DNA of 64,000 bases from Methanosarcinales archaeon (GTDB taxonomy: Archaea > Halobacteriota > Methanosarcinia > Methanosarcinales > Methanocomedenaceae), in NCBI GenBank assembly GCA_021108405.1, contig JAIOQW010000140.1, forward strand, positions 631 through 64,630, in the 5' to 3' direction. Below the pieces are notes generated by a model, which was given only the letters and a program-made list of their open reading frames with translations, had not been told where the DNA came from and did no database searches. Positions 1,316-60,891 of this stretch are shown one piece after another. Within the stretch, counting starts at the first letter, position 1. Each line of letters opens with the position of its first letter. The translations under genes were made by a program, and so were the position numbers.

Positions 1316-4300
1316 ATGAAGATAAGCATAAGGATTTTCATGGTGTTTTTCATTTTCATCTTGATATCAAGTATAGTTACTTTTTTTATCAGCAGTACAA
1401 CCTCAAAAAATATTACTGAAGAGCAGATATATAACAACCTGAATTCGAATGTGGAGTCAAGAACATTTCATATTAAGACCATTCTGGAAAATTATAAAGA
1501 AATTACCGAGACTATGGCAGTGGGAAATTCATTTAAAGATGCAGTGGACGAGAGCAAGGATTATACTCAACGGATAGAGCAGGTTAACAGACGGATAAAC
1601 AATACAATTCAAAAAAATAATGAAATCCTTGTTTTTGTTATACTGGATAAAAATGGCACAGTAATTGCTTCCAATATGGCAGTTGTCGGACGTGATGATA
1701 GTGCTAGTATTATGTTTTTGGAAGGAAAAGAACACACTTTTATAAATGATATCACTATCTGCAAGATATGTGGAGAACCTGTTATAGGTGTGTCATCTCC
1801 AATTGTTGTAAATGGTGAATTTGCAGGGGTTTGTTCGATATATTATTGGGCTACTGTAGAATTATATGATATCATTACAGGTACAACAGGTTTAAAGCAG
1901 ACAGGTGAGATATATCTTGTGAACAAAGACGGTTTTATGATATCTCCATCAAGGTTTGTAAATGATACTGTTCTTAAACAACAGATAAATATTGAACACG
2001 AATATGAACATTCTTTTAATTCAAATGAATTATTCGTAACTAAAAATTATCTTGATGAGAAGGTATTTAGAGTTCATACCCATATACTTGAAATGGAATG
2101 GTATGTGATCGCTGAAATGAGTGAAGAAGAAGCATTAGCACCTGTTGCACAGTTGAATAATGCTATATTTAGTTTCACATTCGCTCTTATTATAATTGGT
2201 CTGGTCATTTCTATTATTATATCAAGATCGATATCCAAACCTATTAATGACCTGAGTAAAGGAGTTCGTGAAATAAAAAGCGGTAACCTTGATTATCAAT
2301 TGAACATTACAACTGGCGATGAAATAGAATTGTTTGCAAATGAGTTCAATGATATGAGTGATAAATTGAAGAGATCATACTCAGGACTCGAATTAAAAGT
2401 AGAAGAAAGAACTAAAGAAATAACAGATGCTAACAATACGCTCAAGGCAGAAATTGAAAAACACACCGCAATAGAGAATAAACTTAAAAGCAAACAGGTA
2501 ATGGACGCGGCATATTCAAAGATACTTACAATTTCAAATAAAACCATAGATATTGATACACTTCTGGACCAGGGTCTTACAAATCTTATGAAATATACTG
2601 ATTCACCGCTGGGTGCAGTCTATATGTTTGATCCGCAGCGCAATATACTTGTACCAAAGATAACTAAAGGTACTATGAATTCAGTCTCTGATAGGGAATT
2701 TTTAATGGGGGACGGTATCCCGGGTGACGCGGCTCAAAGAAAAACTATGATCGTAGTAACAGATATTCCGGAAGATACCGTATTCAGGATGGAATCAGGA
2801 CTGTGTGAATCACTTCCGACAACCATTGTCAGCATACCAATGATCTTTAAGGATATGCTTTTAGGCGTTATAATAACATGTCATACAGGTAATATCACAC
2901 AGGATAAACTGGATTTTATACAGCGTGTTGTTGATCAGTTTGCAGTATCTGTTAATAATGCTAATTCATATACTCAAATGCAGGTAATGGCAGTTCAAAT
3001 GAAAAATCAGCGTGATGAGCTTGAGATACAATCAAATCAACTTGAAGCAGCTAATAAGACAAAGTCCGAATTCCTGGCAAATATGAGCCATGAGCTAAGA
3101 ACCCCGCTTAATTCTATAATAGGGTTCTCAGAAGTATTACATGATCAAACATTCGGACCTGTAAATGATAAGCAGTTGAAGTATATAAACAATGTACTGA
3201 TAAGTGGCAAGCACTTATTACAGCTTATCAATGATATACTTGATCTATCCAAGGTTGAAGCAGGAAAAGTGGAATTGATCTACGAAGATTTTGAGTTATT
3301 AAGAGCAATAGATGAAGTAAAGACATTGATAATATCGATTGCATCAAAGAAGAATATCTCTATAGAAATAAACATCGAACCGCAACTTACTACCTTACAT
3401 GCAGATATCGGTAAAATCAAACAAATACTGTTCAATCTCCTCAGCAATGCAATAAAATTCTCATCTGAACATTCAGTGGTAACAGTAGATGTAGTTCGTA
3501 TTGAAGATATGGCACAGATATCTGTCACTGATACAGGTATAGGGATATCAAAAGAAGACCAGAAAAAACTGTTTAAGACCTTTGTGCAGATAGATGCAGC
3601 TGCCTCCAGGCAATATGAAGGAACCGGACTGGGTCTGGCTCTTGTCAGGCAGTTTGCACAGTTGCATGGAGGTAGTGCATGGGTAGAAAGCGAATCTGGA
3701 AAAGGTAGTACCTTTATTTTTACCATACCTATTGCAGGTAAGAAGAATATAGAGGATACTGATAAAAATACCAAAAACGAAAATGAAACGAAAGATTCTG
3801 TAACAGTACATCAACCTAAGACTACCAGCACCATTGAAAAAATAAAGAACATCACCATGCCAGATATATTTTCACCTGAAGATGGTACTGGTGATGAGCC
3901 TTTGATCCTAGTAGTGGAAGATGATACGAACTCAAATGAACTGCTGACCAATACTCTTACAGGTGCCGGATACAGGACCATATCTGCTTATACAGGAACC
4001 CAGGCAGTGGCTATTGCACAGAAAATGCAGCCGTTTGCTATCACACTCGATATAATGCTGCCTGGTTTGGACGGATGGGATGTGATGAAATGTCTTAAAT
4101 CCGATCCATTAACAAGGAATATCCCTGTTATTGTTATCTCTATGATAGATGAGAAAGAGTGTGCTTATTCATACGGTATAACTGATTACTTTACCAAACC
4201 TGTTGATAAGGATATATTGTTATCCACACTGAACGATCTTACAAATGGTCTTAATATTGAATCACCAAAGGTACTTGTTGTAGATGATGAACCTGATGTA

Positions 4301-6531: not shown

Positions 6532-7167
6532 TTATGTTTTTTTTAAGGCATCTGCTATTCTTTCAGGAAGAGTATCGAGTTTTTCACTTATATCATCAAG
6601 TACACCTAATTTATTATCCATCCCACCTAGCTTATCATTCATTCCACCAAGCTTATCTTCTATTCTGTCAGGTGCACCCAATTTATCATTCATTCCACCA
6701 AGCTTATCATCCATTCTATCAAGTGCACCTAATTTATCATTCATTCCATCAAGCTTATCATCCATTCTATCAAGTGCACCTAATTTATCATTCATCCCAC
6801 TGAGTATATGAATAATCTCATGAAATAATGATGAATGTTCTGTTAATATCCCAATACCTTTATCGAACCGTTTCATATACTCCCGTATATCTTCAGTCGC
6901 AATCCTGCCGAAAGGAGATGGTAATGTAATATCTTCTTCGATCACTGTAGTTTCTATTGTAATATGCCTATGGGATGTTAGATCATTAATAAAACCTGAA
7001 ATAGATATTTCCGGGCCGCTTGCCATAATCTTGACAGAACCATCAATATCATTAAAAACAAATCCATCTAAACCATTAGCTCTTCCATAAGTTTCTACTA
7101 TATCCCTATATCCTACCATTTGAATATTATTTCTTATGGATAAAAAGATGTTTTTTATATTTGTCAT
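6532..7167 (-). CDS. Acylphosphatase-like domain protein with C-terminal DKLG-type tandem repeats
   Basis: The N-terminal ~90 aa (VGYRDIVETYGRANGLDGFVFNDIDGSVKIMASGP) is acylphosphatase-like. The C-terminal half is GMNDKLGALDRMDDKLD repeated, with a 17-aa period. Confidence 0.55.
   Translation of the reverse strand: MTNIKNIFLSIRNNIQMVGYRDIVETYGRANGLDGFVFNDIDGSVKIMASGPEISISGFINDLTSHRHITIETTVIEEDITLPSPFGRIATEDIREYMKRFDKGIGILTEHSSLFHEIIHILSGMNDKLGALDRMDDKLDGMNDKLGALDRMDDKLGGMNDKLGAPDRIEDKLGGMNDKLGGMDNKLGVLDDISEKLDTLPERIADALKKT
6598..6800 (-). repeat. In-frame tandem repeat: 51-bp (17-codon) unit, about 2.6 near-identical copies plus diverged units
   Basis: Units at 6669-6719 and 6720-6770 differ at a few positions. 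A third copy starts at 6771. More diverged 24-27 bp sub-units run from 6598 to 6668. Confidence 0.85.
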
Positions 7168-9739: not shown

Positions 9740-10525
9740 TTATTGCGGTGCGTATAAATGAGACCTCCTGTACTCTACCGGGTCTACTACTCCACCTATA
9801 AGTATCATAGCTGATTGTGTTAATCCAGCTTCTTTGACCTTATCTGCGATATCATTAACAGTTCCTATAATGATCTTCTGGTCCTCCCATGTAGCATGGT
9901 ATACTACGGCAACAGGTGTATCAGGCGGATATTCAACCCTTTGTATGATATGTTCTATCTTATCTGTTCCGAGGAATACCGCCATAGTCGCTCCATGTCT
10001 CGACAATGCTGCCAGGTCATCTTCTGCTAAGGTCTCACCTGCAGGCCGGGTAATGATCAGAGTCTCACTTACACCCTTTAATGTCAATTGAGTACCCAGG
10101 GCTGCTGCACTACCAAATAGGGAAGATACACCTGGTACTATTTTCACTTCCACTGCGTGTTTGTCAAGTTCATTGATCTGCTCAATAATAGCACCATACA
10201 ATGACGGATCACCACTATGCAATCTAACTACTTTTTTACCCTGGTTGAGCGCATCTACCATTACGCCGGTGATATCTTCCAGACGCATTCCGAAGCTGTT
10301 GATCTTCTTGGCTTTAATGTCCTGTAATAACACAGGATTTACCAGGGAGCCGGCATATACTACCAGATCAGCGCTCTCAATAAGCCTTTGTCCTTTTACT
10401 GTGATCAGTTCAGGGTCTCCAGGACCTGCACCTACGAAATATATTTTATTATTACTACCATTCCTCACATTTTTAACAATATTTGCATTATTTTCATTAC
10501 TATTATTCACGGCGCTTCCTCGCAA
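9740..10525 (-). CDS. cbiF: Cobalt-precorrin-4 C11-methyltransferase
   Basis: IYFVGAGPGDPELITVKG and HSGDPSLYGA motifs. Asn-rich N-terminal extension from a GTG start. Confidence 0.85.
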   Translation of the reverse strand: MRGSAVNNSNENNANIVKNVRNGSNNKIYFVGAGPGDPELITVKGQRLIESADLVVYAGSLVNPVLLQDIKAKKINSFGMRLEDITGVMVDALNQGKKVVRLHSGDPSLYGAIIEQINELDKHAVEVKIVPGVSSLFGSAAALGTQLTLKGVSETLIITRPAGETLAEDDLAALSRHGATMAVFLGTDKIEHIIQRVEYPPDTPVAVVYHATWEDQKIIIGTVNDIADKVKEAGLTQSAMILIGGVVDPVEYRRSHLYAPQ

Positions 10526-12457: not shown

Positions 12458-12470
12458 GGTTTATAAATAA

Positions 12471-12537
12471 GAACAAAATCCTCCCTCTGGTCGGATTTTC
12501 TTGAGTATATATCCCTATAGATTATATACTATAAAAA
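12471..12537 (+). repeat. Hairpin mosaic element, modules A-H
   Basis: GAACAAAATCCTCCCTCTGGTCGGATTTTCTTGA followed by AGTATATA-11 nt-TATATACT and an A-run. It starts 14 nt after the nfeD stop. Confidence 0.85.
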
Positions 12538-12594
12538 GACTTAATAAAGTTGAGTATTATTAATCATTATTAATTATTATAGGTAGGCGAGTAT

Positions 12595-14859: not shown

Positions 14860-15702
14860 CTGGCCCTGTCGATGTATTCAGGATAGCTTCTGCCTGGCCC
14901 GGGACTTTTTTAATGAAATGCAGGGTAATTAATAGAATATTGACCTGTTGCCGTCTCTACAAGAATGGAAAAACCTGTACAAAGCAGCGCTTGGGTTCAA
15001 GGAACTGGCTTCTTGGAACTGGATGCACGACAGCGACATTTTCGGGGTTAAAGACCCGGTAAGCGGTGAAATAGGATACTACTGCATCATGGGCGCTGTA
15101 GGTGAGCACTATGCTCTTGGGCTATATTTAGGCTCACAGGGATTGTGTGGGCTATCGAGTATACTCCCCAGCCCGGATGTTCCCGATCGCTTCCATAGTC
15201 CATGCATCAAGTTCAATATTATGGCTAGCAGCCAATTTTCGCAGTTCTCCTGCTGCTATTTCCAGATATTCCTCATCGGTCTGGTCCCCCATCTCTTCAC
15301 GCTTATTCAATGACTCTTGTATAGAAAGGTGGGTAAACACTTTTTGTACCTCATAAGAATGCATCCTATGAGTCGATGTCAGGACAATACATTGGCACAG
15401 GGCCTCAATGCGGGGCGACTATATAGTAGGTGCGCTGTAAGCCTTACCCACATGGCTCACCATTTCCTCGGAAGACACCTGTGCCAGATGATACTTGGAT
15501 TCCAAACCACTTTAATCTGACGTTTTACTTCACTGATATGACTATAATCTGCCAGTCATATCCAGTCCGGGATTCTCCTCCATCCTTCAATGGCCATGGA
15601 TTTGGGATTTACCCGCTTAACCTTATACCACGATTCCCGGTATTTGATCAGATATCCTGGCTTAACATCCTTAGGAGCGATCTTCAAACCGAGCTAAACA
15701 AA
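14860..15702. other. Degraded region with broken ORFs on both strands
   Basis: The plus-strand ORF 14948-15145 looks protein-like (SLQEWKNLYKAALGFKELASWNWMHDSDIFGVKDPVSGEIGYYCIMGAVGEHYALGLYLG) and then degenerates. A protein-like minus-strand ORF runs 15152-15364, and further minus-frame fragments follow to 15700. Confidence 0.3.
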
Positions 15703-15772
15703 GAACAAAATCCTCCCTTCGGTCGGATTTTCTTGAGTATATTATCTTACAGATTATATACTATAAAAAAAA
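15703..15772 (+). repeat. Hairpin mosaic element, modules A-H
   Basis: GAACAAAATCCTCCCTTCGGTCGGATTTTCTTGA + AGTATAT...ATATACT + A9. Confidence 0.85.
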
Positions 15773-21419: not shown

Positions 21420-22101
21420 ATTGAGTGAGACTATTTTTCAGCTTATTAAACTACCTGATTTAGTGACCCTGATAAATGCACTGCTTGGTTTTTCTGCAAT
21501 TCTAATGGTGATCCAGTCTCCATCCAATGTCAATCATGCCTCTATCCTTATCTTATTAGCTGTAATGAGTGATGGATTAGACGGTCTGGTCGCCAGATCA
21601 ATGGAATCAGGTAAGCTTGGGGAATCTCTTGATTCACTGGCTGATACAATATCTTTTGGAGTAGCTCCATGTGCCATGGTATATGCCATACTGGCACCTC
21701 AGTTCCATTATTATGCCTGTTTTGTTGGAGGGGTATTTTTAGCATGTAGTATACTCAGACTGGCAAGGTTCAGTGCAATACCTGTAAAAAAAGGATTTAT
21801 GGGTATTCCGATAACAACTTCCGGTCTGATCGTAGTTCTATATATACTGGCCTTCTATGATGAAAGTTCTCCACTTTATTCCATTGTTCTATTAGGTATC
21901 ATGTTTGTCCTGGCTATGTTAATGATCAGCAATATACCATATCCGAAGATACAGGATACCAGGATTCTTGGTTTGGTTGCTTTTTTAATAATTGTGATTA
22001 TGCTGTTATTCTATCTGGACTATCAAGCCGGACTTGATATAATTGCTAAAGCTTGCTTTGTATTGATGGGATTATATGTCTTTAGTCCATTTTTCAAGTA
22101 A
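21406..22101 (+). CDS. pssA: CDP-alcohol phosphatidyltransferase (archaetidylserine synthase)
   Basis: DGLDGLVARSMESGKLGESLDSLADTISFGVAP matches D-G-x2-A-R-x8-G-x3-D-x3-D. Confidence 0.85.
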   Translation: MQVYELSETIFQLIKLPDLVTLINALLGFSAILMVIQSPSNVNHASILILLAVMSDGLDGLVARSMESGKLGESLDSLADTISFGVAPCAMVYAILAPQFHYYACFVGGVFLACSILRLARFSAIPVKKGFMGIPITTSGLIVVLYILAFYDESSPLYSIVLLGIMFVLAMLMISNIPYPKIQDTRILGLVAFLIIVIMLLFYLDYQAGLDIIAKACFVLMGLYVFSPFFK

Positions 22102-22124
22102 CTGCTCACTTCGTTCGCAGTTAC
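22098..22124 (-). repeat. Hairpin GTAACTGC-[TCACTTCGTTC]-GCAGTTAC carrying the conserved 11-nt loop in reverse orientation
   Basis: 8-bp perfect stem. The loop is the reverse complement of GAACGAAGTGA. It overlaps the pssA stop codon and sits at the truncation point of the next gene. Confidence 0.8.
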
Positions 22125-22708
22125 TTAAGGCTATCAAGCAGAAATACGATTTACCGGATAACTTTATTCTTTCTGTTGCAAAACCATTCCAGGGTGATAG
22201 ATTGTTACCAAGGAAAAACATTGATAATATCGTGAGATCATTCCTTGCATTTGAGGATAATTCAAAAACATTAAAACTCGTATTAGCAGATAATCGCTGT
22301 TATGAGTATATCACAGAGGTATTTGGGAAAGAATTGGCAAATGATCCTAGATTTGTCTATCCTGGTTGGATTTCTCATGAAGATATGCCCTATATATATA
22401 GTCTTGCAAAATTACTTATGATGCCATCATACTCTGAAAGTTTCGGTCTTCCATTGGTGGAAGCAATGGCATGTGGCTGTCCCGTAATCACTTCAACAAC
22501 AAGTTGTTGTCCTGAAATTGTAGGGGATGCAGCTATTGTTGTTGACCCTACTGATGTTAAGGGGCTGACCTTTGCTATAAGTAGTATATTAACTGATCAA
22601 GAACTTTCCAAAAGATTCACTGAAAAAGGAATAAAAAAAGCAAGTGAATATAGCTGGTCTAATAGTGCTAAAAAAGTAATAAGAATTTTCGGCACTGTCC
22701 TGGAATAG
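22124..22708 (+). pseudogene. 5'-truncated GT4-family glycosyltransferase (C-terminal Rossmann domain only)
   Basis: The E-x7-E region ESFGLPLVEAMACGCPVI and the typical GT4 C-terminus are present. The N-terminal ~170-aa domain is absent, and the reading frame runs straight out of pssA and the hairpin. Confidence 0.6.
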
Positions 22709-22972: not shown

Positions 22973-23209
22973 TTTTTATAGTATATCAAATATAACTTGA
23001 TATATCGAAAATGCTTCGCATTTTCTAATCCTCCATTCCTCCAGAATGTCGGTCAATAAAATCCGAGCGGTAGCGAGGATTTTGTTCCAGTATATATTTC
23101 ATAAAAATATATCTCAAGTAAATGCGAACGAAGTGAGCATTTTTTTGTAGTATATCAAGTATAACTTGATGTACTCAAGAAAATCCGAGCGGTAGCGAGG
23201 ATTTTGTTC
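22973..23209 (-). repeat. Two adjacent mosaic elements in reverse orientation (F-Eshort-B-A, then extra hairpins-Elong-F-A)
   Basis: TAGTATATCAAATATAACTTGATATA; GAAAATGC-TTC-GCATTTTC; CTCCATTCCTCCAGAATGTCGG; AAAATCCGAGCGGTAGCGAGGATTTTGTTC occurs twice (ending at 23087 and 23209). Confidence 0.85.
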
Positions 23210-23319
23210 CAATAAAAGTAAAAGAAGGTTGAAGATACGGGATATACATATTCACCAGCATCAAGGCAAGCATTGATATCAATTCAAAGATTTTTTTCGC
23301 TTTTTCCAGGGGTTAATAC

Positions 23320-25104: not shown

Positions 25105-25151
25105 GAGAATATTAACTTCGTTCACAGTTTCTAAGTTTGTAGAAAATAGTG

Positions 25152-30615: not shown

Positions 30616-30704
30616 TGCTATATCCTCCTTACTTATAATTTCAATAAAACTCTTAATTCTCTTATAGTTTTATAATTGAATCTATTTAAAACTTATGAAT
30701 AAAA

Positions 30705-30762
30705 AACACAATCCTCCATTCAGTCGGATTTTACTGAGTATATCAAGTTATACCTGATATAT
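30705..30762 (+). repeat. Hairpin mosaic element, diverged A plus F
   Basis: AACACAATCCTCCATTCAGTCGGATTTTACTGA + GTATATCAAGTTATACCTGATATA. It lies between the ubiA-type gene and the histone gene. Confidence 0.7.
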
Positions 30763-33354: not shown

Positions 33355-33400
33355 TTGCTCCTTGAATTGCTCTTTAAGTATATATTATTGACTGTGAGGA

Positions 33401-33435
33401 GAACAAAATCCTCCCTCCGGTCGGATTTTCTTGAC
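33401..33435 (+). repeat. Module A alone, directly upstream of the IS91-like transposase gene
   Basis: GAACAAAATCCTCCCTCCGGTCGGATTTTCTTGA. Next comes a CATTTTCT/AGAAAATG hairpin (about 33455-33488) whose arms match the module E stem. Confidence 0.85.
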
Positions 33436-33495
33436 GTATAGGAATTTATAAACACATTTTCTTATCCTGCTACTGAAATAGAAAATGTTGAAAGA

Positions 33496-34365
33496 ATGAG
33501 GTTTTGTAGAAAGCCTCAAAATGGATATAAAGTATATAAGTGTCCGAAATGTGAAACAAAGAAGTACGTATCTTTCACTTGTAAGACTCGTCTATGTACA
33601 TCATGTGGAACAAAATCGGCTAATGAATTTGCAGATAAAATTTATCATAGACTTCTAAGAGTCCCACACAGGCATGTTGTTTTTACTATTCCTGACAGGT
33701 TAAGGGAGACTTTCAAGATTTCTGATCATCAGAAAATTCTCTTTGAGGCAGCAAAAGTAACAATGGGAGATATGATCCAGTTTTCAAATAAAAAAAGCAA
33801 GAGAAAAATAAAGTTGAAAATTGGCATGATTCAGTTTCTGCAAACATTTGGTGCAGATATGAAATATAATCATCATATTCATAGCATTGTTACTGAAGGT
33901 GGTTTTGATAGAAATGGGAACTGGATTCATGTACATTTTATACACTATAAAGGATGGAGGAAAAAGTGGCAATATGAATTACTGACAAGGCTGAAAAAAG
34001 AAATGCCAAGATGCAAAGAGACAAATAAGTTCATAGACTTGCAATTTAAAAAATATCCAAATGGATTTGTAATTTACGGTAAAAGAAGATTTGAAAAAAG
34101 AGATGGGTGGAATATGGCAAGGTATATTGGTAGATATGTTAAGCATCCACCAATAGCCGAATCAAGAATAAAAGCCTATGATGGAAAACATGTAATATTC
34201 TGGTATAAAGACACTGAAACCAAAAGGAAGATAACTGTAACAATGGATAAAATTGAGTTTGTGCGATTACTGCTAAGTCACATACCAGTAAAATATTTTA
34301 GAACTGTTAGGTACTATGGTGTCTATTCAAGAAGAGGATACAAGCATAGAAATGGTTGTACTTAA
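33496..34365 (+). CDS. IS91-family-like rolling-circle (HUH, Y2) transposase, probably C-terminally truncated or frameshifted
   Basis: Zn-binding N-terminus CPKCETKKYVSFTCKTRLCTSCG. VPHRHVVFTIPDRLR. HUH motif NHHIHSIVTEGGF. RYIGRYVKHPPIAESRI. Tyrosine motif RTVRYYGVYSRR. An open +1 frame continues to about 34470. Confidence 0.75.
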   Translation: MRFCRKPQNGYKVYKCPKCETKKYVSFTCKTRLCTSCGTKSANEFADKIYHRLLRVPHRHVVFTIPDRLRETFKISDHQKILFEAAKVTMGDMIQFSNKKSKRKIKLKIGMIQFLQTFGADMKYNHHIHSIVTEGGFDRNGNWIHVHFIHYKGWRKKWQYELLTRLKKEMPRCKETNKFIDLQFKKYPNGFVIYGKRRFEKRDGWNMARYIGRYVKHPPIAESRIKAYDGKHVIFWYKDTETKRKITVTMDKIEFVRLLLSHIPVKYFRTVRYYGVYSRRGYKHRNGCT

Positions 34366-34532
34366 AGCCGCTGAAAGTGGAATTGGTAGAGATCAAACTT
34401 TAAGTGATATTGAATATTTGAAATTTAGGGGATATGTCTATGAGCCTAAAACAGGAGAAATTAGATATGCATTATAAGCGGTAGCCGAAGCGTATATGCT
34501 GTGTTAGACGATAATGCGAACGAATGGGCATA

Positions 34533-36643: not shown

Positions 36644-37018
36644 CTATTTTGCAGTCACTATACTATACGGACTTAAGTCCAAGGCCTGTTTATAAACCTC
36701 AGCTTTTAGATTTTCTATCTTGTCCGGCAATATAATTTTCAACAACTTCCCAGCCACTTCGAACACTTCCATAATAACAACTTTGTGCCCGGAGACTTTG
36801 CTTACATCTTTCTTTAAGTTTAAGGAAATTTGTAATATCCTACTACTCCTTCTTTTAATTCTCTTTGTAATAAAGTTTATGGAATAATTTAGAAGAAATT
36901 GAATAAATAGATGTACATGATCTAGATTATTTGCCATATTAATAATCTCAATATTCAAAACCAAGTTAGCAAAGACAGTGCTAATATCATGTTTACTCTC
37001 AACAACAATTTTATAACC
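36644..37018 (-). pseudogene. Decayed IS200/IS605-type TnpA (Y1 HUH transposase) gene
   Basis: YKIVVESKH (cf. YHIVW), HUH motif DHVHLFI, KRRSSRIL (cf. KGxSSR), AEVYKQ (cf. YIxxQ). An in-frame TAG lies 2 codons upstream of the YKIVV block, no proper start exists, and the middle is diverged. Confidence 0.55.
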
Positions 37019-37043: not shown

Positions 37044-37340
37044 AAAATGCTTCGCATATTCTTAACCAAAGCTACAAAGGAGCCAAAGAGAACAAAATCC
37101 TTCCTTCGGTCGGATTTTCTTGACCGACATTCCGGAGGAATGGAGGATTAGAAAATGTGAACGAAGTGAGCATTTTCGATATATCAAGTTATACTTGATA
37201 TACTATAAGAAAACACGAAGTGTTTTTACCCTCCATTCCCACGAAATGTCGGGTGATCATATCGAAGATTCTACGAATCTTCTAATCTTCGGCTCTTTTC
37301 GAGTCTCAGATAAGCAAATCCGAACGAAGTGAGGATTTGC
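37044..37340. repeat. Largest mosaic array: Eshort, A-B-Elong-F forward, then G hairpin, B, C and D-like reversed, and a terminal GCAAATCC-[GAACGAAGTGA]-GGATTTGC hairpin
   Basis: Read directly. A starts at 37090. GAAAATGT-GAACGAAGTGA-GCATTTTC spans 37151-37177. F spans about 37178-37208. AAAACAC-GAA-GTGTTTT. GAAGATTC-TAC-GAATCTTC. The final hairpin spans 37314-37340. The array ends 22 nt before the ferredoxin start. Confidence 0.85.
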
Positions 37341-37362
37341 TTAACGTAAAAACTCTTGTAAG

Positions 37363-42919: not shown

Positions 42920-43705
42920 CTACTGTTGAAAATTTAATATTTTTTTATCCAGTATTTCTGTGACAGGGTTCTTCTGTATGGAAGATGTAAGTATTGCATC
43001 CCATACAAGATCAGAATCTTTTAAATCTGTTATAATAAGGTATTCCGGAGAAGCTGCCTTTTGTAAGATTAAGGCATGCTGCTTTAACACTTTTTCTCCT
43101 ATATCACTTGAAATGATTATTTTTTTATCATTCAATGAACCATATGAAGTTACATAGTCTATTATAACATTCAATCCTGTTATATCTTTTGAGAATATTA
43201 CAATATATTCAATATCTATAGTATCATCCGGAAACGTACCCGGGAAATATTTTGAGTCATAATCAATTCTTTTTTCAAGTACTGGTATCCCAACTGCTGT
43301 GGCATAATTTCCCATTAGTCTTACAAGATTATATTTAACCGAGTTATCATAAATTATCAGCATAGAGCTCATATTAGATTCTTCTGTGCTCTCTGGTTTA
43401 TTATCATCTATATCGCTATCTGATCCGGTGTCATCATCTTCATCACTGTCTACATCATCTGCTTCGCTATCTGATTCACTGTCATCATCTACACCGCTAT
43501 CTGTATCATCATCGTCATCCACATCGCTGTCTGACTCACTGTTATCATCTACATCACTGTCTGGTTCATCGTTGTCATCTCCATCACTATCTGACTCTGC
43601 TTGAGATATTTCTAGGTTTGTTAACGCTAGCAACCCACCAGTCAGAAGAATTGTGATAATCACTAATATGACCCTTATTCTCATATGTTCTAATTCCTTT
43701 TCCAT
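42920..43705 (-). CDS. Signal-anchored protein with ~70-aa Asp/Ser-rich repeat region and C-terminal globular domain
   Basis: N-terminal TM VILVIITILLTGGLLAL, six DSDxDDxxxx-type decamers, then about 150 aa of ordinary sequence. It is the first gene of the three-gene minus-strand cluster. Confidence 0.6.
   Translation of the reverse strand: MEKELEHMRIRVILVIITILLTGGLLALTNLEISQAESDSDGDDNDEPDSDVDDNSESDSDVDDDDDTDSGVDDDSESDSEADDVDSDEDDDTGSDSDIDDNKPESTEESNMSSMLIIYDNSVKYNLVRLMGNYATAVGIPVLEKRIDYDSKYFPGTFPDDTIDIEYIVIFSKDITGLNVIIDYVTSYGSLNDKKIIISSDIGEKVLKQHALILQKAASPEYLIITDLKDSDLVWDAILTSSIQKNPVTEILDKKILNFQQ
43390..43600 (-). repeat. In-frame ~30-bp periodic repeat encoding DSD(V/G/I)DD decamers
   Basis: The protein reads DSDGDDNDEP DSDVDDNSES DSDVDDDDDT DSGVDDDSES DSEADDV... 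DSDIDDNKPE. The shadow ORF on the opposite strand is correspondingly repetitive. Confidence 0.8.
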
Positions 43706-43711
43706 TATTTT

Positions 43712-43876
43712 TAGTATATCAAGTATAACTTGATATATCGAAAATGCTCACTCTGTTCACATTTTCTAATCTTCAGCTCTTTTATGAGCCTCGCTCGAAG
43801 ATTCTATGAATCTTCTAATCCTCCATTCCTCTGGAATGTCGGTCAAGAAAATCCTCCAGACGGGTAGATTTTGTTC
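43712..43876 (-). repeat. Full-length mosaic element in reverse orientation (F-E-D-C-B-A on the plus strand)
   Basis: TAGTATATCAAGTATAACTTGATATA; GAAAATGC-TCACTCTGTTC-ACATTTTC; D-like; GAAGATTC-TAT-GAATCTTC; CTCCATTCCTCTGGAATGTCGG; diverged A ending GATTTTGTTC. Confidence 0.85.
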
Positions 43877-44022
43877 TTATCTAACTTTCTTCACTTTGTT
43901 GTGACTTATTTATCATTATTTATACATTTCGGCTTACACAGTATCTTCAAATAACTTTTTGATATTTCTTCAATCAGCATCAATTTGCGTTTCCTACACG
44001 CTCCTTAAGTCGTTGCAGTCAT

Positions 44023-44700: not shown

Positions 44701-44762
44701 TAGTATATATTCCATAAGATTATATACTTAAGAAAATTCGAGCGTTAGCTAGGATTTTGTTC
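44701..44762 (-). repeat. Mosaic element H-A in reverse orientation
   Basis: TAGTATATATTCCATAAGATTATATACT + TAAGAAAATTCGAGCGTTAGCTAGGATTTTGTTC. Confidence 0.8.
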
Positions 44763-44795
44763 TTCAGATTATCTAATATCTTTAGGAGTATTTTT

Positions 44796-45236
44796 ATGGT
44801 TGATTTTAATAAATTGCAAAAACCTGTTTTAATTTCAGGAATTCCGGCTGGATTAATTTCAGTGATCCCATTTATACATTGTCTATGCTGCGTGTGGCTG
44901 ATACTGTTTGGTTTTCTATCAGCATATTTATTTAAAAAAGATACAGGAACTCTGGAAATCGAAGACGGTGTAATATCCGGAGCTCTAACTGGTTTAGTAG
45001 CATTTGTTATTATGATGATTTTATCTATAATCTTTATATTTTTTAAAGTTGGAATATCCCCTCTAATGGGAGAAGATATGGCAATGCAAGGTATTATGTC
45101 AGGTTTTTCTTTATTATTTATATTATTCACAGGGTTAATACAAATCATCGTATTTCCGATTTTCGGAGCAATTGGCGGAATAATTGGAGCTGTATTGTTG
45201 AAAGATAAAGAACTGAGTGAACAAAATCCTCGCTAA
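44796..45236 (+). CDS. Small polytopic membrane protein of unknown function
   Basis: 4 TM segments. The ATG at 44796 is preferred because the track start at 44757 lies inside the repeat. The last five codons and the stop (EQNPR*) are encoded by module A. Confidence 0.5.
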   Translation: MVDFNKLQKPVLISGIPAGLISVIPFIHCLCCVWLILFGFLSAYLFKKDTGTLEIEDGVISGALTGLVAFVIMMILSIIFIFFKVGISPLMGEDMAMQGIMSGFSLLFILFTGLIQIIVFPIFGAIGGIIGAVLLKDKELSEQNPR

Positions 45237-45502
45237 CGCTCGGATTTTCTTGACTGAAGCTCCGAAGGAGCTGAAGATTAGAAGATTCGTAGAATCTTCA
45301 CCTGAGGCTCTTAAAAGAGCCTAAGATTAGAAAATGTGAACGGAGTGAGCATTTTCGATATATCGAGTTATACCTGATAGAGGCTGTCCAACAATCCAAA
45401 ATCGGAAGAAAAAGAAAGGCAAATAGGGCTGTTAATCCAAAAACAAGTGAAATTTTTGATACCAAAAGCAATTGTGGGACAGCCTCGATATACTATAAAA
45501 AA
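45219..45502 (+). repeat. Full-length mosaic element A-B'-C-D-E-F, with F interrupted by a 107-bp insertion
   Basis: GAACAAAATCCTCGCTAACGCTCGGATTTTCTTGA; GAAGCTCC-GAA-GGAGCT; GAAGATTC-GTA-GAATCTTC; GGCTCTT-AA-AAGAGCC; GAAAATGT-GAACGGAGTGA-GCATTTTC; split F. Confidence 0.9.
45380..45486. mobile_element. Nested 107-bp TIR element inserted in module F, flanked by a GATA direct duplication
   Basis: 10-bp perfect TIRs GAGGCTGTCC / GGACAGCCTC. GATA occurs at 45376-45379 and again at 45487-45490, while intact F copies have a single GATA (ACTTGATATACT). Confidence 0.6.
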
Positions 45503-45611: not shown

Positions 45612-46676
45612 ATGTCAAATATTTCCATTAAAACGATAAATAAAAGTCATATAGATGAAGTTGATTTTGATAATCTAGGTTTTGGCGAGGTCTTTTCTGA
45701 TCATATGTTCAGTATGGATTATGAGAACGGGGAATGGATAAACCCGAGGATCGAACCATATGGAAATATTGAATTCGAACCTGCTATGTGCACACTTCAC
45801 TATGCTCAATCAGTCTTTGAAGGTCTGAAAGCCTTCCATGTTAATGATGGGAGTATTAATCTTTTCAGGCCCGAGATGAACCTTGAAAGGATGAACAGAT
45901 CCAACGACAGGATGTGCATTCCGCGTATAGATATTGATATGTTCTTTGATGCTATGACCACTCTCATCAAACTGGAGCGCAACTGGATACCTGATAAAAA
46001 AGGATATTCATTATATATACGGCCCTTTGTTTTCGGGACTGAGAATTTCCTTGGTGTGCATCCTTCAAACACATATCGTTTTATGATCATACTCTCACCG
46101 GTCGGTGCATACTACAAAGAAGGTTTCAATCCTGTTAGTCTGTTAGTACCTGAAGAATATGTCAGGGCTGTTAAAGGCGGAGTTGGTGAGGCAAAAACTT
46201 CAGGTAACTATGCTGCCAGTCTGCTGCCTGCCGAGATAGCACAGAAAAGGGGGTATACCCAGGTATTATGGCTTGATGGTGTAGAGCATAAATATATTGA
46301 TGAAGTAGGTACCATGAATATCTTCTTTGTTATTGATGATGAACTGGTAACACCACCACTGGAAGGTTCAATTTTAGGCGGTATAACCAGGGATTCTACC
46401 ATTCACCTGGCAAGAGACTGGGGTATGAAAGTATATGAGCGGCGCATTTCTATTGATGAGATCATTGAGAGATCAAAAGAGGATAGACTCAAAGGGGCCT
46501 TTGGTACTGGTACTGCAGCTGTCATATCCCCGGTAGGTGAGATCCGGTATAAGGATATTACGCTAAATATAAATGACGGGGAGATAGGTCCTATCGCCAG
46601 AAGATTGTATGATGAGATCACTGGTATACAGTACGGAGAAAAACCTGATAGATACGGGTGGATATACAAGATATAA
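45612..46676 (+). CDS. ilvE: Branched-chain amino acid aminotransferase
   Basis: 354 aa, class IV aminotransferase (YAQSVFEGLKAF, VGEAKTSGNYAASL, GTMNIFFV, GITRDS). Confidence 0.9.
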   Translation: MSNISIKTINKSHIDEVDFDNLGFGEVFSDHMFSMDYENGEWINPRIEPYGNIEFEPAMCTLHYAQSVFEGLKAFHVNDGSINLFRPEMNLERMNRSNDRMCIPRIDIDMFFDAMTTLIKLERNWIPDKKGYSLYIRPFVFGTENFLGVHPSNTYRFMIILSPVGAYYKEGFNPVSLLVPEEYVRAVKGGVGEAKTSGNYAASLLPAEIAQKRGYTQVLWLDGVEHKYIDEVGTMNIFFVIDDELVTPPLEGSILGGITRDSTIHLARDWGMKVYERRISIDEIIERSKEDRLKGAFGTGTAAVISPVGEIRYKDITLNINDGEIGPIARRLYDEITGIQYGEKPDRYGWIYKI

Positions 46677-46835
46677 AAATAAAATCCTCGCTAGCGCTCG
46701 GATTTTATTGACCGACATTCCAGAGAAATGGAGGATTAGAAGATTCGTAGAATCTTCGCCAGAGGCTCTTAAAAGAGCCGAAGAGTAGAAAATGTGAACG
46801 GAGTGAGCATTTTCGATATAGTTGTACTTAATACT
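46676..46835 (+). repeat. Full-length mosaic element A-B-C-D-E-(degenerate F)
   Basis: It starts at the ilvE stop codon and ends at the HNH gene ATG. Modules are as in 45219, except that B (CATTCC-AGA-GAAATG) replaces B'. Confidence 0.9.
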
Positions 46836-47264
46836 ATGAAAAAGACTAATATTAAAAGGACCATACAGTACCGCCGTAAGATCCAGCTTCTTACACAGTT
46901 GTTCAATAAAAGAAAAACTGAGCTATCAGCGGGATATCAGGGGTATCACGAACTTAAAGGGTTTGTGGATGAGTGTGAGCACTGGGGCATAATGGACCGC
47001 GGCCAGGAAAAGGCACTGGATGAGTGGATAGATTTTCTTAACCGCTGGCCTTTTGCAGGAGGAACAACGAAGAGTGCTTTAACACCATACCAGCGAAATA
47101 AGGCGATGGGGAAGCAACAGTTTATATGTACTATGTGCGGCAGGCCTGCAGAAGAGGTGCATCATATAATCCCAAGATCAAAGGGCGGTCGGAATACTTC
47201 TGGTAATCTTACTATATTGTGCAGGGAGTGTCATGAAAAAATTCATAAAAAAAAGAAAAAGTAG
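46836..47264 (+). CDS. Stand-alone HNH endonuclease
   Basis: CTMCGRPAEEVHHIIPRSKGGRNTSGNLTILCRECHEKIH. I did not recognise the N-terminal ~90 aa. The track start at 46794 lies inside the repeat, so the ATG at 46836 is preferred. Confidence 0.75.
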   Translation: MKKTNIKRTIQYRRKIQLLTQLFNKRKTELSAGYQGYHELKGFVDECEHWGIMDRGQEKALDEWIDFLNRWPFAGGTTKSALTPYQRNKAMGKQQFICTMCGRPAEEVHHIIPRSKGGRNTSGNLTILCRECHEKIHKKKKK

Positions 47265-50288: not shown

Positions 50289-50367
50289 TTGAGTGGTCTA
50301 ATTTATTGTTTTTTTATTTTAAGTTATCCTAATTATTTTTTTATAGAATTTCCAATTCCTGCAATAA

Positions 50368-50429
50368 GAACCAAATCCTCCTTCCGGTCGGATTTTCTTA
50401 AGTATATCAAGTTATACTTAATATACTAT
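50368..50429 (+). repeat. Hairpin mosaic element A-F
   Basis: GAACCAAATCCTCCTTCCGGTCGGATTTTCTTAA + GTATATCAAGTTATACTTAATATACT. Confidence 0.8.
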
Positions 50430-51461: not shown

Positions 51462-51482
51462 TATTTATTAGAATTATTTTTT

Positions 51483-51545
51483 GTAGTATATCAAGTATAA
51501 CTTGATATACTCAAGAAAATCCGAGCGTTAGCGAGGATTTTGTTC
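51483..51545 (-). repeat. Mosaic element F-A in reverse orientation
   Basis: GTAGTATATCAAGTATAACTTGATATACT + CAAGAAAATCCGAGCGTTAGCGAGGATTTTGTTC. It ends 11 nt before the speB start. Confidence 0.85.
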
Positions 51546-56341: not shown

Positions 56342-56361
56342 TTTTCAACTATAAAACTAAA

Positions 56362-56425
56362 GAACAAAATCCTCCCTCTGGTCGGATTTTCTTGACTATA
56401 TATTCTTATAGATTATAATCTACAA
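56362..56425 (+). repeat. Hairpin mosaic element A-H
   Basis: GAACAAAATCCTCCCTCTGGTCGGATTTTCTTGA + CTATATATTCTTATAGATTATAAT. The H part overlaps the stop and last codons of the convergent larE-like gene. Confidence 0.8.
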
Positions 56426-59842: not shown

Positions 59843-60739
59843 ATGGAACTTGAAGGATTACGACATGGAACTGAATTATTAAAACGCGGATTTGCCAGTA
59901 TGCAAAAAGGTGGTGTTGTTATGGATGTCACAACTTCGGATGAGGCACATATTGCAGAAGATGCCGGTGCTGTAGCGGTCATGGCCCTGCATATGGTTCC
60001 TGCTGATATCAGAAAGATCGGTGGTGTGGCACGTATGGCTGACCCACAAATTATTTCGCAGATCATTGATGCTGTTACCATACCGGTTATGGCTAAGGCA
60101 CGTATCGGCCATTTTGTAGAAGCTGATATACTACAATCATTGGGTGTAGACCTGGTAGATGAATCTGAAGTGTTGACCCCTGCAGATGAGAAATATCATA
60201 TTGATAAAAGGAACTTTACCATTCCTTTCATATGCGGAGCCAGGGATCTGGGTGAAGCTCTACGTAGAATTCATGAAGGAGCGGCCATGATACGTACCAA
60301 AGGGGAAGCAGGTACAGGTGATATACGCGAAGCTGTCAGACATATCCGTGTGATCAATGAACAGATAGGTAAGCTTAAAGGGATGAATATACAAGAGATG
60401 GAAAGAGTGGCAAGAGAGATTGAAGCACCTATAGAATTAGTTATAGAGACAGGAGAACGCCAGCGTCTTCCCGTAGTAAACTTTGCTGCCGGCGGGGTTG
60501 CTACACCCGCAGATGCTGCCCTGATGATGAGACTGGGTGCAGATGGTGTTTTTGTAGGTAGCGGTATATTCAAAGCAGAGAATCCGTCCACTATGGCAAG
60601 TGCTATTGTGGATGCAGTCAACAATTTCGATGATGCTAAGGTGCTGGGTGAGATATCCAAGGGTCTGGGAGAACAGATGAAAGGTATAAGCATTGATACC
60701 ATCCCGAAAGAGGAGATATTACAGACCCGAGGATGGTAA
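59843..60739 (+). CDS. pdxS: Pyridoxal 5'-phosphate synthase, lyase subunit
   Basis: [48 protein letters not shown]. Confidence 0.95.
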
Positions 60740-60885
60740 ATAAAATCCTCGCTAGCGCTCGGATTTTCTTGACTGAAGCTTCGAAGAAGCTGAAGATTAG
60801 AAGATTCGTAGAATCTTCGTCTGACATTCCGGAGGAATGGAGGATTAGATAATGTGAACGGGGTGAGCATTTTCGATGTATCAAG
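60740..60885 (+). repeat. Full-length mosaic element A-B'-C-B-E-(degenerate F)
   Basis: It starts 1 nt after the pdxS stop. B' here is GAAGCTTC-GAA-GAAGCT, a compensated variant. The E loop is GAACGGGGTGA. Confidence 0.9.
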
Positions 60886-60891
60886 ATATTT

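Follow-up and report, generated by a model that had tools for sequence, protein, structure and literature searches.

Transposons of the IS91 family are moved by an HUH Y2 transposase and insert without target duplication at a CTTG or GTTC tetranucleotide beside oriIS, an end that contains palindromes. The opposite end, terIS, consists in IS91, IS801 and IS1294 of one imperfect subterminal palindrome abutting the cleavage tetranucleotide (GTTC, CTCG). The cut falls at the palindrome's foot, beside this tetranucleotide, rather than within a loop, and the intermediates are single-stranded circles. One-ended transposition is expected to yield tandem products and to co-mobilise flanking DNA (PMC13181058). 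The units described below resemble this family in the absence of a target duplication, in the ori-type palindrome at one end and in the imperfect palindrome with its adjoining tetranucleotide at the other; where they stand in arrays, they also follow CTTG. Unlike the IS91 family, they reside in an archaeal host and are gene-less, with a length of 61-66 bp. Helitrons also end in a 3' hairpin, but they are eukaryotic, encode a Rep-helicase, have the ends TC...CTRR and show no sequence relation to the units.

Bacterial REP, BIME and REPIN sequences are similar in a different way. They are imperfect palindromes of 20-40 bp, which are present in high copy between genes, either solo, as inverted pairs or in mosaics. 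Their hairpins are polar owing to conserved mismatches, ISs use them as landing sites, and insertions may reach the ends of genes. All of these properties recur in the present hairpins. The GTAG/GTGG tag is absent, however, no RAYT was found in about 360 kb, the stems are AT-rich instead of GC-rich, the two hairpins of a unit differ from each other, and the foot tetranucleotide suggests an IS91-type partner.

Mini-hairpins of the type C-GAA-G or C-GNA-G, such as d(GCGAAGC), and tandem sheared G·A pairs are unusually stable in both single-stranded DNA and RNA. The tip of the present hairpins has the same C-GAA-G/C-GNA-G arrangement, closed by C-G beside 5'-GA/GA-3'. The extra-stable mini-hairpins are physical-chemistry motifs rather than genetic elements, and they may play a corresponding role in the tip. 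Nearest-neighbour parameters for DNA do not account for a stabilisation by GA/GA. The K-turn and K-loop bound by L7Ae likewise occur in archaea and place a tandem G·A beside a helix at the apex of a hairpin, a sheared geometry with which the tip is compatible in sequence alone. The tip differs from them in having no 3-nt bulge, in that the intervening bases pair and covary, and in an orientation that is inconsistent with respect to transcription.

The ANME-2 archaea are uncultured, are key methane oxidisers, and their genomes are known from metagenomes only.

The GA tip and its hairpin family

The window, that is, the whole 64-kb stretch of DNA that was analysed, contains the 11-mer GAACRRAGTGA in seven exact copies, against 0.07 expected (about 100-fold; at least seven copies were reached in none of 100 shuffles). 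An eighth copy, at 60856, has GGG in the loop. The 11-mer had been pointed out in the initial annotation, and the hairpins listed there were found at or near their positions (23120, 37151, 45330, 46788, 60851, 43740 on the minus strand, 37311-37343, and 22094-22128 on the minus strand). The two short E stems with a TTC loop (23007-23025 and 37044-37060) are also real. Of two sites described as degenerate, both weak, that at 34505-34530 is indeed a decayed copy, and that at 25113-25123 has no stem.

The 11-mer is not an 11-nt loop, as had been proposed. It is composed of two tandem G·A mismatches, two covarying base pairs and a GNA or GNNA loop. Positions 3-4 pair and covary with positions 8-9, and the GA...GA and a loop of 3-4 nt remain unpaired. 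About 20 hairpins in the window fit this GA-NN-loop-NN-GA grammar, compared with about 2 in shuffles. The outer pair of the tip is A-T in 36 copies, C-G in 24 and G-C in 17, and the inner pair is C-G in 73 of 79. In the seed alignment 87.6% of the cells are paired, compared with 74% in shuffles, none of 500 of which scored equally high. Both-sided changes occur at seven pairs, and the signal collapses when the partners are slid. Covariation is also seen across 82 distinct copies, in which the G·A positions of the tip are invariant in 94-96% (77-79 of 82) and the loop is GAA, GGA, GTA or a G-pyrimidine-T-A tetraloop in 51.

The stems had been regarded as unrelated. Judged from their alignment, all of them are variants of one stem, (C/T)AAG-NAAAT-SY, with compensatory changes, and they form a single homologous family, an outcome that the initial annotation had itself named as refuting its proposal. 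The consensus of the GA-strand alignment is (C/T)(A/T)AG-N-A-A-(A/C)-T-(C/G)-(C/T), with a mean column identity of 79% over 38 columns. On its purine-rich strand, a family copy starts with (C/T)AAG, followed by an AT-rich stem of 7-11 bp, G-A, 2 bp and the GNA/GNNA loop; past the loop come 2 bp, G-A, the returning stem, TTTT and then GTTC, CTTG or a near variant. The abundant hairpin AAAATCC...GGATTTT is the family element in the opposite orientation. The 5' heads are CAAG (35), TTAG (16), CAAT (7) and TAAG (5). The 3' feet after TTTT are GTTC (23) and CTTG (15) in 38 of 74 distinct copies, and the rest are variants including CTTA, GTTT and CGAT. The commonest E subtype of the source genome has the 3' end TTTTCGAT, which is neither CTTG nor GTTC.

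Searched with a covariance model of the family, the window yields 24 copies, and 363 kb of ANME-2/Methanosarcinales DNA yield 98. Matches of the family type are nearly all intergenic, even though ORFs make up about 80% of the sequence. Module positions coincide with the ends of truncated genes and with the edges of indels. No Rfam family matches anywhere in the window at gathering thresholds, and around 37311-37343 there is just noise (E up to 10); a scan of the window for tRNAs gave none. A search of the literature for the sequence strings returned nothing relevant, and no prior description was found in the literature on Methanosarcina and ANME repeats, archaeal REP/RAYT or archaeal IS91 MITEs.

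Table. Features of the window that belong to, or were compared with, the hairpin family. A, E, X and Y denote subtypes of hairpins and palindromes.
Positions	Strand	Feature	Remarks
12469..12505	-	A-type hairpin	part of A+Y unit 12468-12540
15701-15737, 30702-30738, 33399-33435, 56360-56396	-	A-type copies	covariance model
22093..22129	-	family hairpin, TAACTGC/GCAGTTA stem (12 bp)	a complete gene on one side, a truncated glycosyltransferase gene on the other
23002..23030	-	tip-less E hairpin GAAAATGC-GAA-GCATTTTC	position and orientation of the E hairpin in other mosaics
23052..23211	+	three family hairpins (23052-23089, 23113-23149, 23174-23211)	Y palindrome between
33434..34530	+	truncated IS91-like element, left end ACGTATAGGAA...	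starts directly after the CTTG foot of A hairpin 33399-33435
36644..36964	-	IS200-like pseudogene (YIAGQ-type C-terminus)	5'-truncated, frameshifted; outside the hairpin system
37044..37060	-	tip-less E-like hairpin AATATGC-GAA-GCATTTT
37087..37345	+	mosaic foldback	MFE -101.7 kcal/mol, z = -9.9
37088..37124	-	A-type hairpin, + strand reading GAAC-AAAATCC-TTCCTTCGGTC-GGATTTT-CTTG	48.9 bits
37146..37182	+	E-type hairpin GATTAG-AAAATGT-GAACGAAGTGA-GCATTTT-CGAT	covariance model
37311..37343	+	hairpin TAAGCAAATCC-GA-AC-GAA-GT-GA-GGATTTGCTTA	11-bp stem; covariance-model score 53.5 bits
37322..37332	+	11-mer GAACGAAGTGA	tandem G·A (GA/GA), 2 bp (AC/GT), GAA triloop
43735..43878	-	mosaic: E hairpin with AGA loop 43735-43771, degenerate A hairpin 43842-43878	stops 10 nt short of the ATG of gene 42920-43705
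44727-44764	+	A-type copy	covariance model
45217..45379	+	mosaic: A hairpin (GA strand -), three small GNA-loop hairpins, E hairpin 45325-45361, Y	ORF 44757-45236 ends with TAA in a hairpin loop of the mosaic
46675..46840	+	mosaic of the same kind as 45217..45379	abuts the stop codon of gene 45612-46676; E hairpin 46783-46819
50367..50429	-	63-bp unit (A hairpin + Y)	site comparison
51480..51542	+	63-bp unit (Y palindrome, A hairpin, TTTTG/TTC)	flanked by aIF5A and agmatinase
60736..60890	+	mosaic of the same kind as 45217..45379	between PdxS and RFC; E hairpin (GGG loop) 60843-60879

The hairpin at 37311-37343 combines a stem of the 'A' subtype with a tip of the 'E' subtype and forms the right arm of a 257-bp foldback. 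This mosaic begins with an A hairpin that has its GA strand on the minus strand, the X palindrome, an E hairpin and the Y palindrome, in this order. These are followed by AAAACAC-GAA-GTGTTTT, X', GAAGATTC-TAC-GAATCTTC, GGCTC..GAGTC and the 37311-37343 hairpin. The hairpins at either end are inverted copies of each other and pair mutually in the predicted fold. The earlier description of the 11-mer as a swappable insert is right only loosely, in the sense that several combinations of tip and stem subtypes exist and that a tip-less form occupies the same position in a mosaic.

Units, arrays and the IS91-like element

The smallest recurring assembly is a unit of 61-66 bp, in which an AT-rich palindrome ('Y', the 5' half) is followed by a GA-tip hairpin (the 3' half) and TTTT(C/G)TT(G/C). 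Units occur solo, in head-to-tail arrays joined by CTTG, and in inverted mosaics. Arrays with CTTG junctions are present at the loci L063 (of four and of two units), L095 (three) and L056 (three). Units within arrays are preceded by CTTG, and solo units by TTTTTT(A/G).

Comparison with related genomes reveals both filled and empty sites. The units at 51480-51542 and 50367-50429 have empty orthologous sites in L074 and L075 and show no target duplication, the flanks at both sites being AT-rich rather than CTTG and the junctions not being fixable to the base. At the former site, L073 carries a different mix of modules. Mosaics are missing from orthologous sites in ANME-2 HR1; that at 60736-60890, for example, is present in L073 and absent from HR1 (L028). 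The cargo gene of the insertion in L073 encodes a glycoside-hydrolase-like protein, not a transposase.

An IS91-like (HUH Y2) element of about 1.65 kb with sharp ends is found in the same lineage as the units. Its protein contains the domains Zn_Tnp_IS91 and Y2_Tnp, in which the HUH and YxxxY motifs are seen, and genes with both domains are present in the window (truncated), in related metagenomes and in MAGs. The Y2 transposase of L086 (1357-2763) is 468 aa long, and P0126 is a further such protein. The element is inserted directly 3' of TTTTCTTG or TTTTTTA, and several times this point is the foot of a family hairpin. The target CTTG is such a foot in the window, in L086 and in L084, and in L086 the element splits an A+Y unit exactly, again with no target duplication. 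The left end, ACGTATAGGAAAGTATAAAC, abuts (T)TTCTTG in seven of the first 12 copies, the others being preceded by a T-run ending in TA or TGA. The right end is a hairpin followed by TTTCTTG, namely GCCCC-GAA/GCA-GGGGC-TTTCTTG. Unlike in IS91, T-run+A targets are as frequent as CTTG, and the orientation of the gene relative to ori and ter is reversed: tnpA lies on the strand that reads 5'-CTTG|ori...ter-CTTG|, whereas the reported active strand of IS91 is the bottom one.

The left end ties the element to the units. Five 66-nt units from three Methanosarcinales MAGs start with ACGTATAGGAAAGTATA, 17 nt that are identical to the left end of the IS91-like element, and close with an E hairpin and CTTG. 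The MAGs with such units include CSMAG_508 and a bin of SRR21487742. The Y palindromes of other lineages can be aligned to the same left, ori-type end. The right ends differ. All autonomous copies sampled end in GCCCC-GNA-GGGGC without G·A, whereas the family hairpin is marked by a pair of invariant G·A mismatches and by its 2-bp/GNA cap. The two hairpins have nothing in common beyond C(GNA)G in the cap and TTTCTTG in the tail. A GA-tip hairpin was found at the end of none of about 20 autonomous copies examined.

The copy in the window starts directly at a family-hairpin foot, and its ORF (33496-34365; Zn_Tnp_IS91 + Y2_Tnp) retains HHIH and YIGRY and has lost both ends of the protein. The decayed E-like hairpin near its 3' end lacks CTTG and is therefore unusable as evidence for an autonomous element that ends in a GA tip. 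In about 170 kb of hairpin-rich ANME-2 loci no IS91-like gene was found, and MAG assemblies do drop such repeats.

Proposed mobilisation of the units and its alternatives

Taken together, the ends, the targets and the sites without duplication suggest that the units are IS91-type MITEs, the hairpin being their terIS-like end. We give this reading slightly better than an even chance (roughly 0.55). The units would be non-autonomous rolling-circle elements mobilised by an HUH Y2 transposase, and the GA-tip hairpin together with its tetranucleotide would constitute the terIS-like end. Once single-stranded, the strand with G·A/G·A and C(GNA)G would fold into a compact, asymmetric hairpin, and the tip might serve fast, strand-specific folding, contact with a protein, or both. 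The transposase would then cut immediately 3' of the CTTG or GTTC at the foot of the hairpin. Every new unit would supply a hairpin with a TTTTCTTG foot, which is the preferred target, and an A-type palindrome has CTTG and GTTC on its opposite strands. New insertions would thus accumulate beside older ones in either orientation, and this pile-up would explain why tandem arrays, inverted pairs and long mosaics are seen. Against this reading stand the differing ter hairpin of the autonomous element, the strand of tnpA, the 3' end of the commonest E subtype, the AT-rich flanks of the two filled sites and the 170 kb of hairpin-rich loci that have no IS91-like gene. The preference of an IS for hairpin targets does not by itself prove that the enzyme of the IS moves the hairpins.

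If the IS91-type model is true, the units would be, to our knowledge, the first described rolling-circle MITEs of archaea. They would also show how an end that creates its own target (hairpin + CTTG) nests elements into arrays and mosaics. The G·A mismatches, being invariant, make it easy to test how an HUH Y2 transposase discriminates between the strands of a palindrome. Mobile hairpin units of about 60 bp, with 24 copies in 64 kb, help to explain the long, repeat-filled intergenic regions of ANME-2 genomes, as well as contig breaks, gene truncations and local losses of synteny. The covariance model can be used to mask and annotate repeats in Methanosarcinales MAGs.

Alternatively, the hairpins could be REP/BIME-like repeats that are moved or maintained by an enzyme of another type, either an unsampled RAYT-like Y1 protein or the recombination or replication machinery of the host, with the IS91-like element merely landing at hairpin feet, as some bacterial ISs do on REPs. 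This we consider unlikely, even though high copy number, intergenic placement, imperfect palindromes with conserved mismatches, and inverted pairs and mosaics reminiscent of BIMEs and REPINs would all fit. The variable presence of copies among close relatives, the position of modules at the borders of truncated genes and indels, and the dissimilarity of the IS91-like ter hairpin to the family hairpin point the same way. Against it, the 5' foot has no GT(A/G)G tag, the heads being CAAG or TTAG, and the sole Y1 gene in the roughly 360 kb sampled is the IS200-type pseudogene, the end hairpins of whose intact relative are unrelated. The genes with hairpins on both sides are ordinary housekeeping genes with no transposase among them, and a REPtron was rejected on the same ground. 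The RAYT classes have been reported from bacteria only (PMC6006769), and the IS91-like left end of the units would be left unexplained.

It is quite unlikely that the tip is kept mainly for a function in RNA, the DNA repeats just spreading an RNA element such as an L7Ae-type K-loop or a stable hairpin of 3' UTRs or operon spacers that blocks exonucleases or insulates genes. In 87 of 88 copies the RNA fold of the GA strand is better than that of its complement, by 3.5 kcal/mol, and many copies lie directly after stop codons or in operon spacers and are therefore probably transcribed, which speaks for such a function. Tandem G·A is the core of the K-turn, and a tandem GA/GA beside a U·G or C-G pair resembles the K-loops of archaeal H/ACA and C'/D' RNAs. 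However, the 3-nt bulge is absent, and between the GAs lies a covarying 2-bp helix, which a K-loop would not need. The GA strand is sense or antisense to the flanking genes without bias, with both orientations within a single mosaic, orthologous positions do not retain copies, and no Rfam family matches. Very unlikely is a reading in which the tip (G·A/G·A with its C(GNA)G cap) is itself a recognition module, used across domains; it could then delimit rolling-circle mini-elements of a broad and so far undescribed class, or could be a protein-binding RNA or DNA cap (for instance of the L7Ae family) scattered over genomes as a dispersed regulatory network. The original proposal of an 11-nt single-stranded loop on unrelated stems, which would contain the nick site of an HUH enzyme (IS200-like or IS91-like) or of the adjacent HNH protein, is extremely improbable. 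In its favour are the conserved sequence that caps the hairpin and the HUH genes of the window; against it, the 11-mer pairs internally and the stems are homologous. Enzymes of the IS91 family cut beside the palindrome at the tetranucleotide, and a nick within the loop is therefore unlikely (PMC13181058). The initial view of a recognition-type feature on a hairpin, as opposed to a plain terminator, is supported. The HUH connection drawn there survives for the IS91-like protein, through the CTTG/GTTC foot, the insertion at this foot and the units with an IS91-like left end, and fails for the IS200-like one.

Other candidate partners and tips on other hairpins

Of the IS200-like gene, the window contains just a pseudogene, and the end hairpins of the closest intact relative (P0122, L076) are different ones. 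Near its end this relative carries GGACTTAAGTCC, which is retained in the pseudogene of the window, and no GA-tip hairpin. The HNH gene was set aside as well, since it has no homologues near other copies and hairpins flank it on one side only. A canonical K-turn was rejected after the 3-nt bulge had been sought in several registers and in a neighbouring CUGAAG...CUGAAG hairpin, all of which are symmetric G·A internal loops. Hairpins are not required for archaeal termination, and an intrinsic terminator is at odds with the AT-rich stems, the T run on the 5' side of the unit and the mixed orientation.

GA tips were also encountered on unrelated hairpins, in hairpin arrays of gut Clostridia, in a Gallispira MAG, in a low-GC 'Desulfovibrionaceae' MAG and in a viral contig. 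About half of the bacterial matches in the genome scan lie within long ORFs, where they encode DVNxVSI and thus arise by chance. The scan of viral contigs gave 20 matches, 19 of which are chance coding matches and one of which is a genuine hairpin.

The tip and the stem of the hairpin

The 64-kb window has seven copies of the 11-mer GAACRRAGTGA, where dinucleotide shuffles predict 0.07, and an eighth copy carries a GGG loop. Every hairpin listed in the initial annotation was found, as were both of the shortened E stems closed by a TTC loop, and the raw observation of a recurrent 11-mer thus holds. The interpretation of the 11-mer as an 11-nt loop presented on unrelated stems has to be revised in both of its parts.

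Between the two GA dinucleotides, the outer pair is A-T, C-G or G-C and the inner pair is nearly always C-G, while the loop variants are GAA, GGA, AGA, AAA or G(T/C/G)TA. In the 11-mer, a GNA or GNNA loop therefore closes a 2-bp helix, below which lie two tandem G·A mismatches. RNA parameters predict precisely this fold, and the purine-rich (GA) strand is more stable than its complement by 3.5 kcal/mol on average; with DNA nearest-neighbour parameters, which have no terms for sheared G·A pairs and GNA loops, the tip stays open in the predicted fold. When the window was scanned with the hairpin grammar stem–GA–NN–loop(3-4)–N'N'–GA–stem', about 20 hairpins on both strands fitted it, compared with about 2 after shuffling. 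The same design is seen on the opposite strand of the abundant AAAATCC…GGATTTT hairpin, the top of which reads TCCCTTCGGTC on one strand.

The stems belong to one homologous family, an outcome that the initial annotation had itself named as refuting its claim of unrelated stems. An alignment of 18 window copies, all read on the GA strand, has 79% column identity over 38 columns, and GAAAATGT, GCAAATCC, GTAACTGC and GTAAATGC are compensatory variants (C-G/G-C at one pair, A-T/C-G/T-A at others) of a single stem, G-N-A-A-N-T-S-Y, with (C/T)(A/T)AG directly before it. Several combinations of tip and stem subtype occur; the hairpin at 37311-37343 carries an E-type tip on an A-type stem, and a tip-less E form occupies the same place in the same orientation in one mosaic (multi-module repeat). 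Each of the four G·A mismatch positions is conserved in 77-79 of 82 distinct copies. Together with the compensatory stem changes, this is good evidence for hairpin formation in vivo and for selective retention of the mismatches.

Placement, gain and loss of the repeats

Judged from its genes, which include aIF5A, RFC, CofC and cobalamin genes, and from close DNA and protein matches, the window (39% G+C) is part of an ANME-2/Methanosarcinales MAG. With a covariance model derived from the window copies, 24 matches were obtained for the window itself and 98 across 363 kb of related sequence, a sample including Methanosarcinaceae MAGs and ANME-2 genera in which a housekeeping protein has only 65-67% identity. 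Family-type matches are almost all intergenic, though about 80% of the sequence is ORF, and the GA strand is not consistently oriented with respect to the genes beside it. Larger repeats contain the hairpins as modules; the 257-bp region around the hairpin at 37311-37343 is predicted to form a single long foldback, both ends of which are inverted hairpin copies.

The mosaics are absent from the orthologous regions of ANME-2 HR1. Comparison with close relatives gave two clean cases of presence and absence, each of a 63-bp unit made of the AT-rich palindrome Y and a hairpin, without target duplication; in one of the two cases, a third genome combines the same hairpin with another set of modules. 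Stop codons are supplied by hairpin loops, several hairpin copies adjoin truncated genes, and hairpin insertions extend into coding ends. Four truncated genes end at or beside a hairpin module, which suggests that the modules mark deletion or insertion breakpoints. Variable gene islands also adjoin hairpin modules.

Features associated with the hairpin modules, and other repeats of the window (window coordinates unless a comparison locus, L073, is named)
Feature	Position	Description
DUF7309 fragment	14948-15313	Truncated; ends at/beside hairpin module
GT4 C-terminal fragment	22076-22708	Truncated; ends at/beside hairpin module
IS91-like gene	33496-34365	Truncated; ends at/beside hairpin module
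IS200-like gene	36644-36964	Truncated; ends at/beside hairpin module
Agmatinase stop codon	52424-52452	TAA of A-hairpin loop; kept in L073/L074
Stop codon of ORF 44757-45236	45219-45247	TAA of A-hairpin loop
NAD synthase, last codons	56394-56431	Within Y palindrome
Variable 2.1-kb segment	54338-56432 (versus L073 4591-4621)	DUF234 ATPase, ParE-type toxin; A+Y unit at right boundary
Variable 1.2-kb segment	L073 1442-2688 (versus window 52452)	GH32/43-like protein; begins directly after CTTG of A hairpin
Separate MITE, ~110 bp	45381-45490	Terminal inverted repeats GAGGCTGTCC(A/C)AC; 4-bp target duplication (GATA); within Y palindrome of mosaic
Tandem coding repeat	6564-6809	51-bp period; in ORF 6532-7167 (-)
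Tandem coding repeat	43403-43594	30/51-bp, acidic; in ORF 42920-43705 (-)

Relation to the IS91-like element

The IS91-like ORF of the window is a truncated copy with Zn_Tnp_IS91 and Y2_Tnp domains. Full copies from metagenomes and MAGs are sharp-ended elements of about 1.65 kb that start with ACGTATAGGAAAGTATAAAC, end with …AATTTT-GCCCC-GAA/GCA-GGGGC-TTTCTTG and insert without duplication. The start is directly preceded by (T)TTCTTG in 7 of the first 12 copies, and otherwise by a T-run ending in TA or TGA. In the IS91 family, a CTTG/GTTC target lies next to oriIS, which has palindromes, one imperfect terIS palindrome adjoins the cleavage tetranucleotide, and single-strand circles are formed (PMC13181058); by its sequence, the element matches this pattern. 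Contigs of 1630-1653 bp (L100-L104) consist of the element at exactly its own length, ACGTATAGG… to …CTTTCTTGA, as happens in many assemblies, which shows that the element has multiple copies in ANME/Methanoperedens metagenomes and causes their assemblies to break.

The target, the foot and the left end are common to the hairpin family and this element and tie the two together. The element used the foot of a family hairpin as its CTTG target in three cases (the window, L084 and L086); its insertion in L086 parts an A+Y unit precisely where hairpin and Y palindrome join. The foot is TTTT followed by GTTC (23) or CTTG (15) in 38 of 74 distinct copies. The units form head-to-tail arrays with joints at CTTG, and solo units are preceded by TTTTTT(A/G), the other target type of the element. 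Five 66-nt units, present in three Methanosarcinales MAGs, share their first 17 nt with the IS91-like left end and finish with an E hairpin including GAACGAAGTGA, then CTTG; the Y palindromes of other lineages align with the same left end.

The most likely reading (probability about 0.55) is that the units are miniature IS91-type elements, with an ori-type end formed by Y and a ter-type end formed by the GA-tip hairpin and its tetranucleotide. The GA tip on the transferred strand would form a compact, strand-specific cap, the complementary strand having T·C/C·T mismatches and pyrimidine loops. With each insertion adding one more hairpin-TTTTCTTG target, and with the two strands of the A-type palindrome presenting CTTG and GTTC respectively, units would pile up side by side in both orientations. 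Against this reading, the ter hairpin of the autonomous element is without the G·A tip, and the main E subtype of the window ends in CGAT; the junctions of the two polymorphic 63-bp units, which are not fixed to the base, limit it further. A REP/BIME-like family moved by something else, in which the IS91-like element only lands, is a rather unlikely alternative. REP/RAYT systems are described for bacteria; for archaea, the literature searched turned up neither these repeats nor IS91-type MITEs. The hairpin repeats are a variant on two known kinds, IS91-family ends and REP-like mosaics.

A primary role in RNA, as a K-loop or a protective hairpin, is improbable: the structure has no bulge, its 2-bp helix covaries, its orientation is mixed and its positions are not conserved. 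The literal model of the initial annotation, a nick site within the loop, is least credible of all.

The same tip in other genomes

Real hairpins with the same tip on other stems are present in L052, L055, L060 and L070 (low-GC MAG labelled Desulfovibrionaceae), in L053 (Gallispira) and at 9836 of a viral contig (L005). In L060 and L070 two of them face each other as inverted copies, with about 40 nt between them, and in L053 the hairpin lies within a repeated multi-hairpin block. There is a small chance that the tip in these bacterial MAGs and the viral contig represents something broader.

Gut Clostridia MAGs (L035 at ~3450-3800, L037, L050, L057, L061) have arrays of 8-10 different short hairpins, spaced by ATATCGA / CTCGATAT and flanked on one side by the gene for a rumA-like methyltransferase and on the other by that for a four-helix-bundle protein. 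A rolling-circle origin of these arrays is conceivable, because CTCG is the IS91 terIS tetranucleotide. Two of their hairpins, ATGT-GAACGAAGTGA-GCAT and ATTTC-GAGCATAGCGA-GAAAT, have the same GA…GA grammar.
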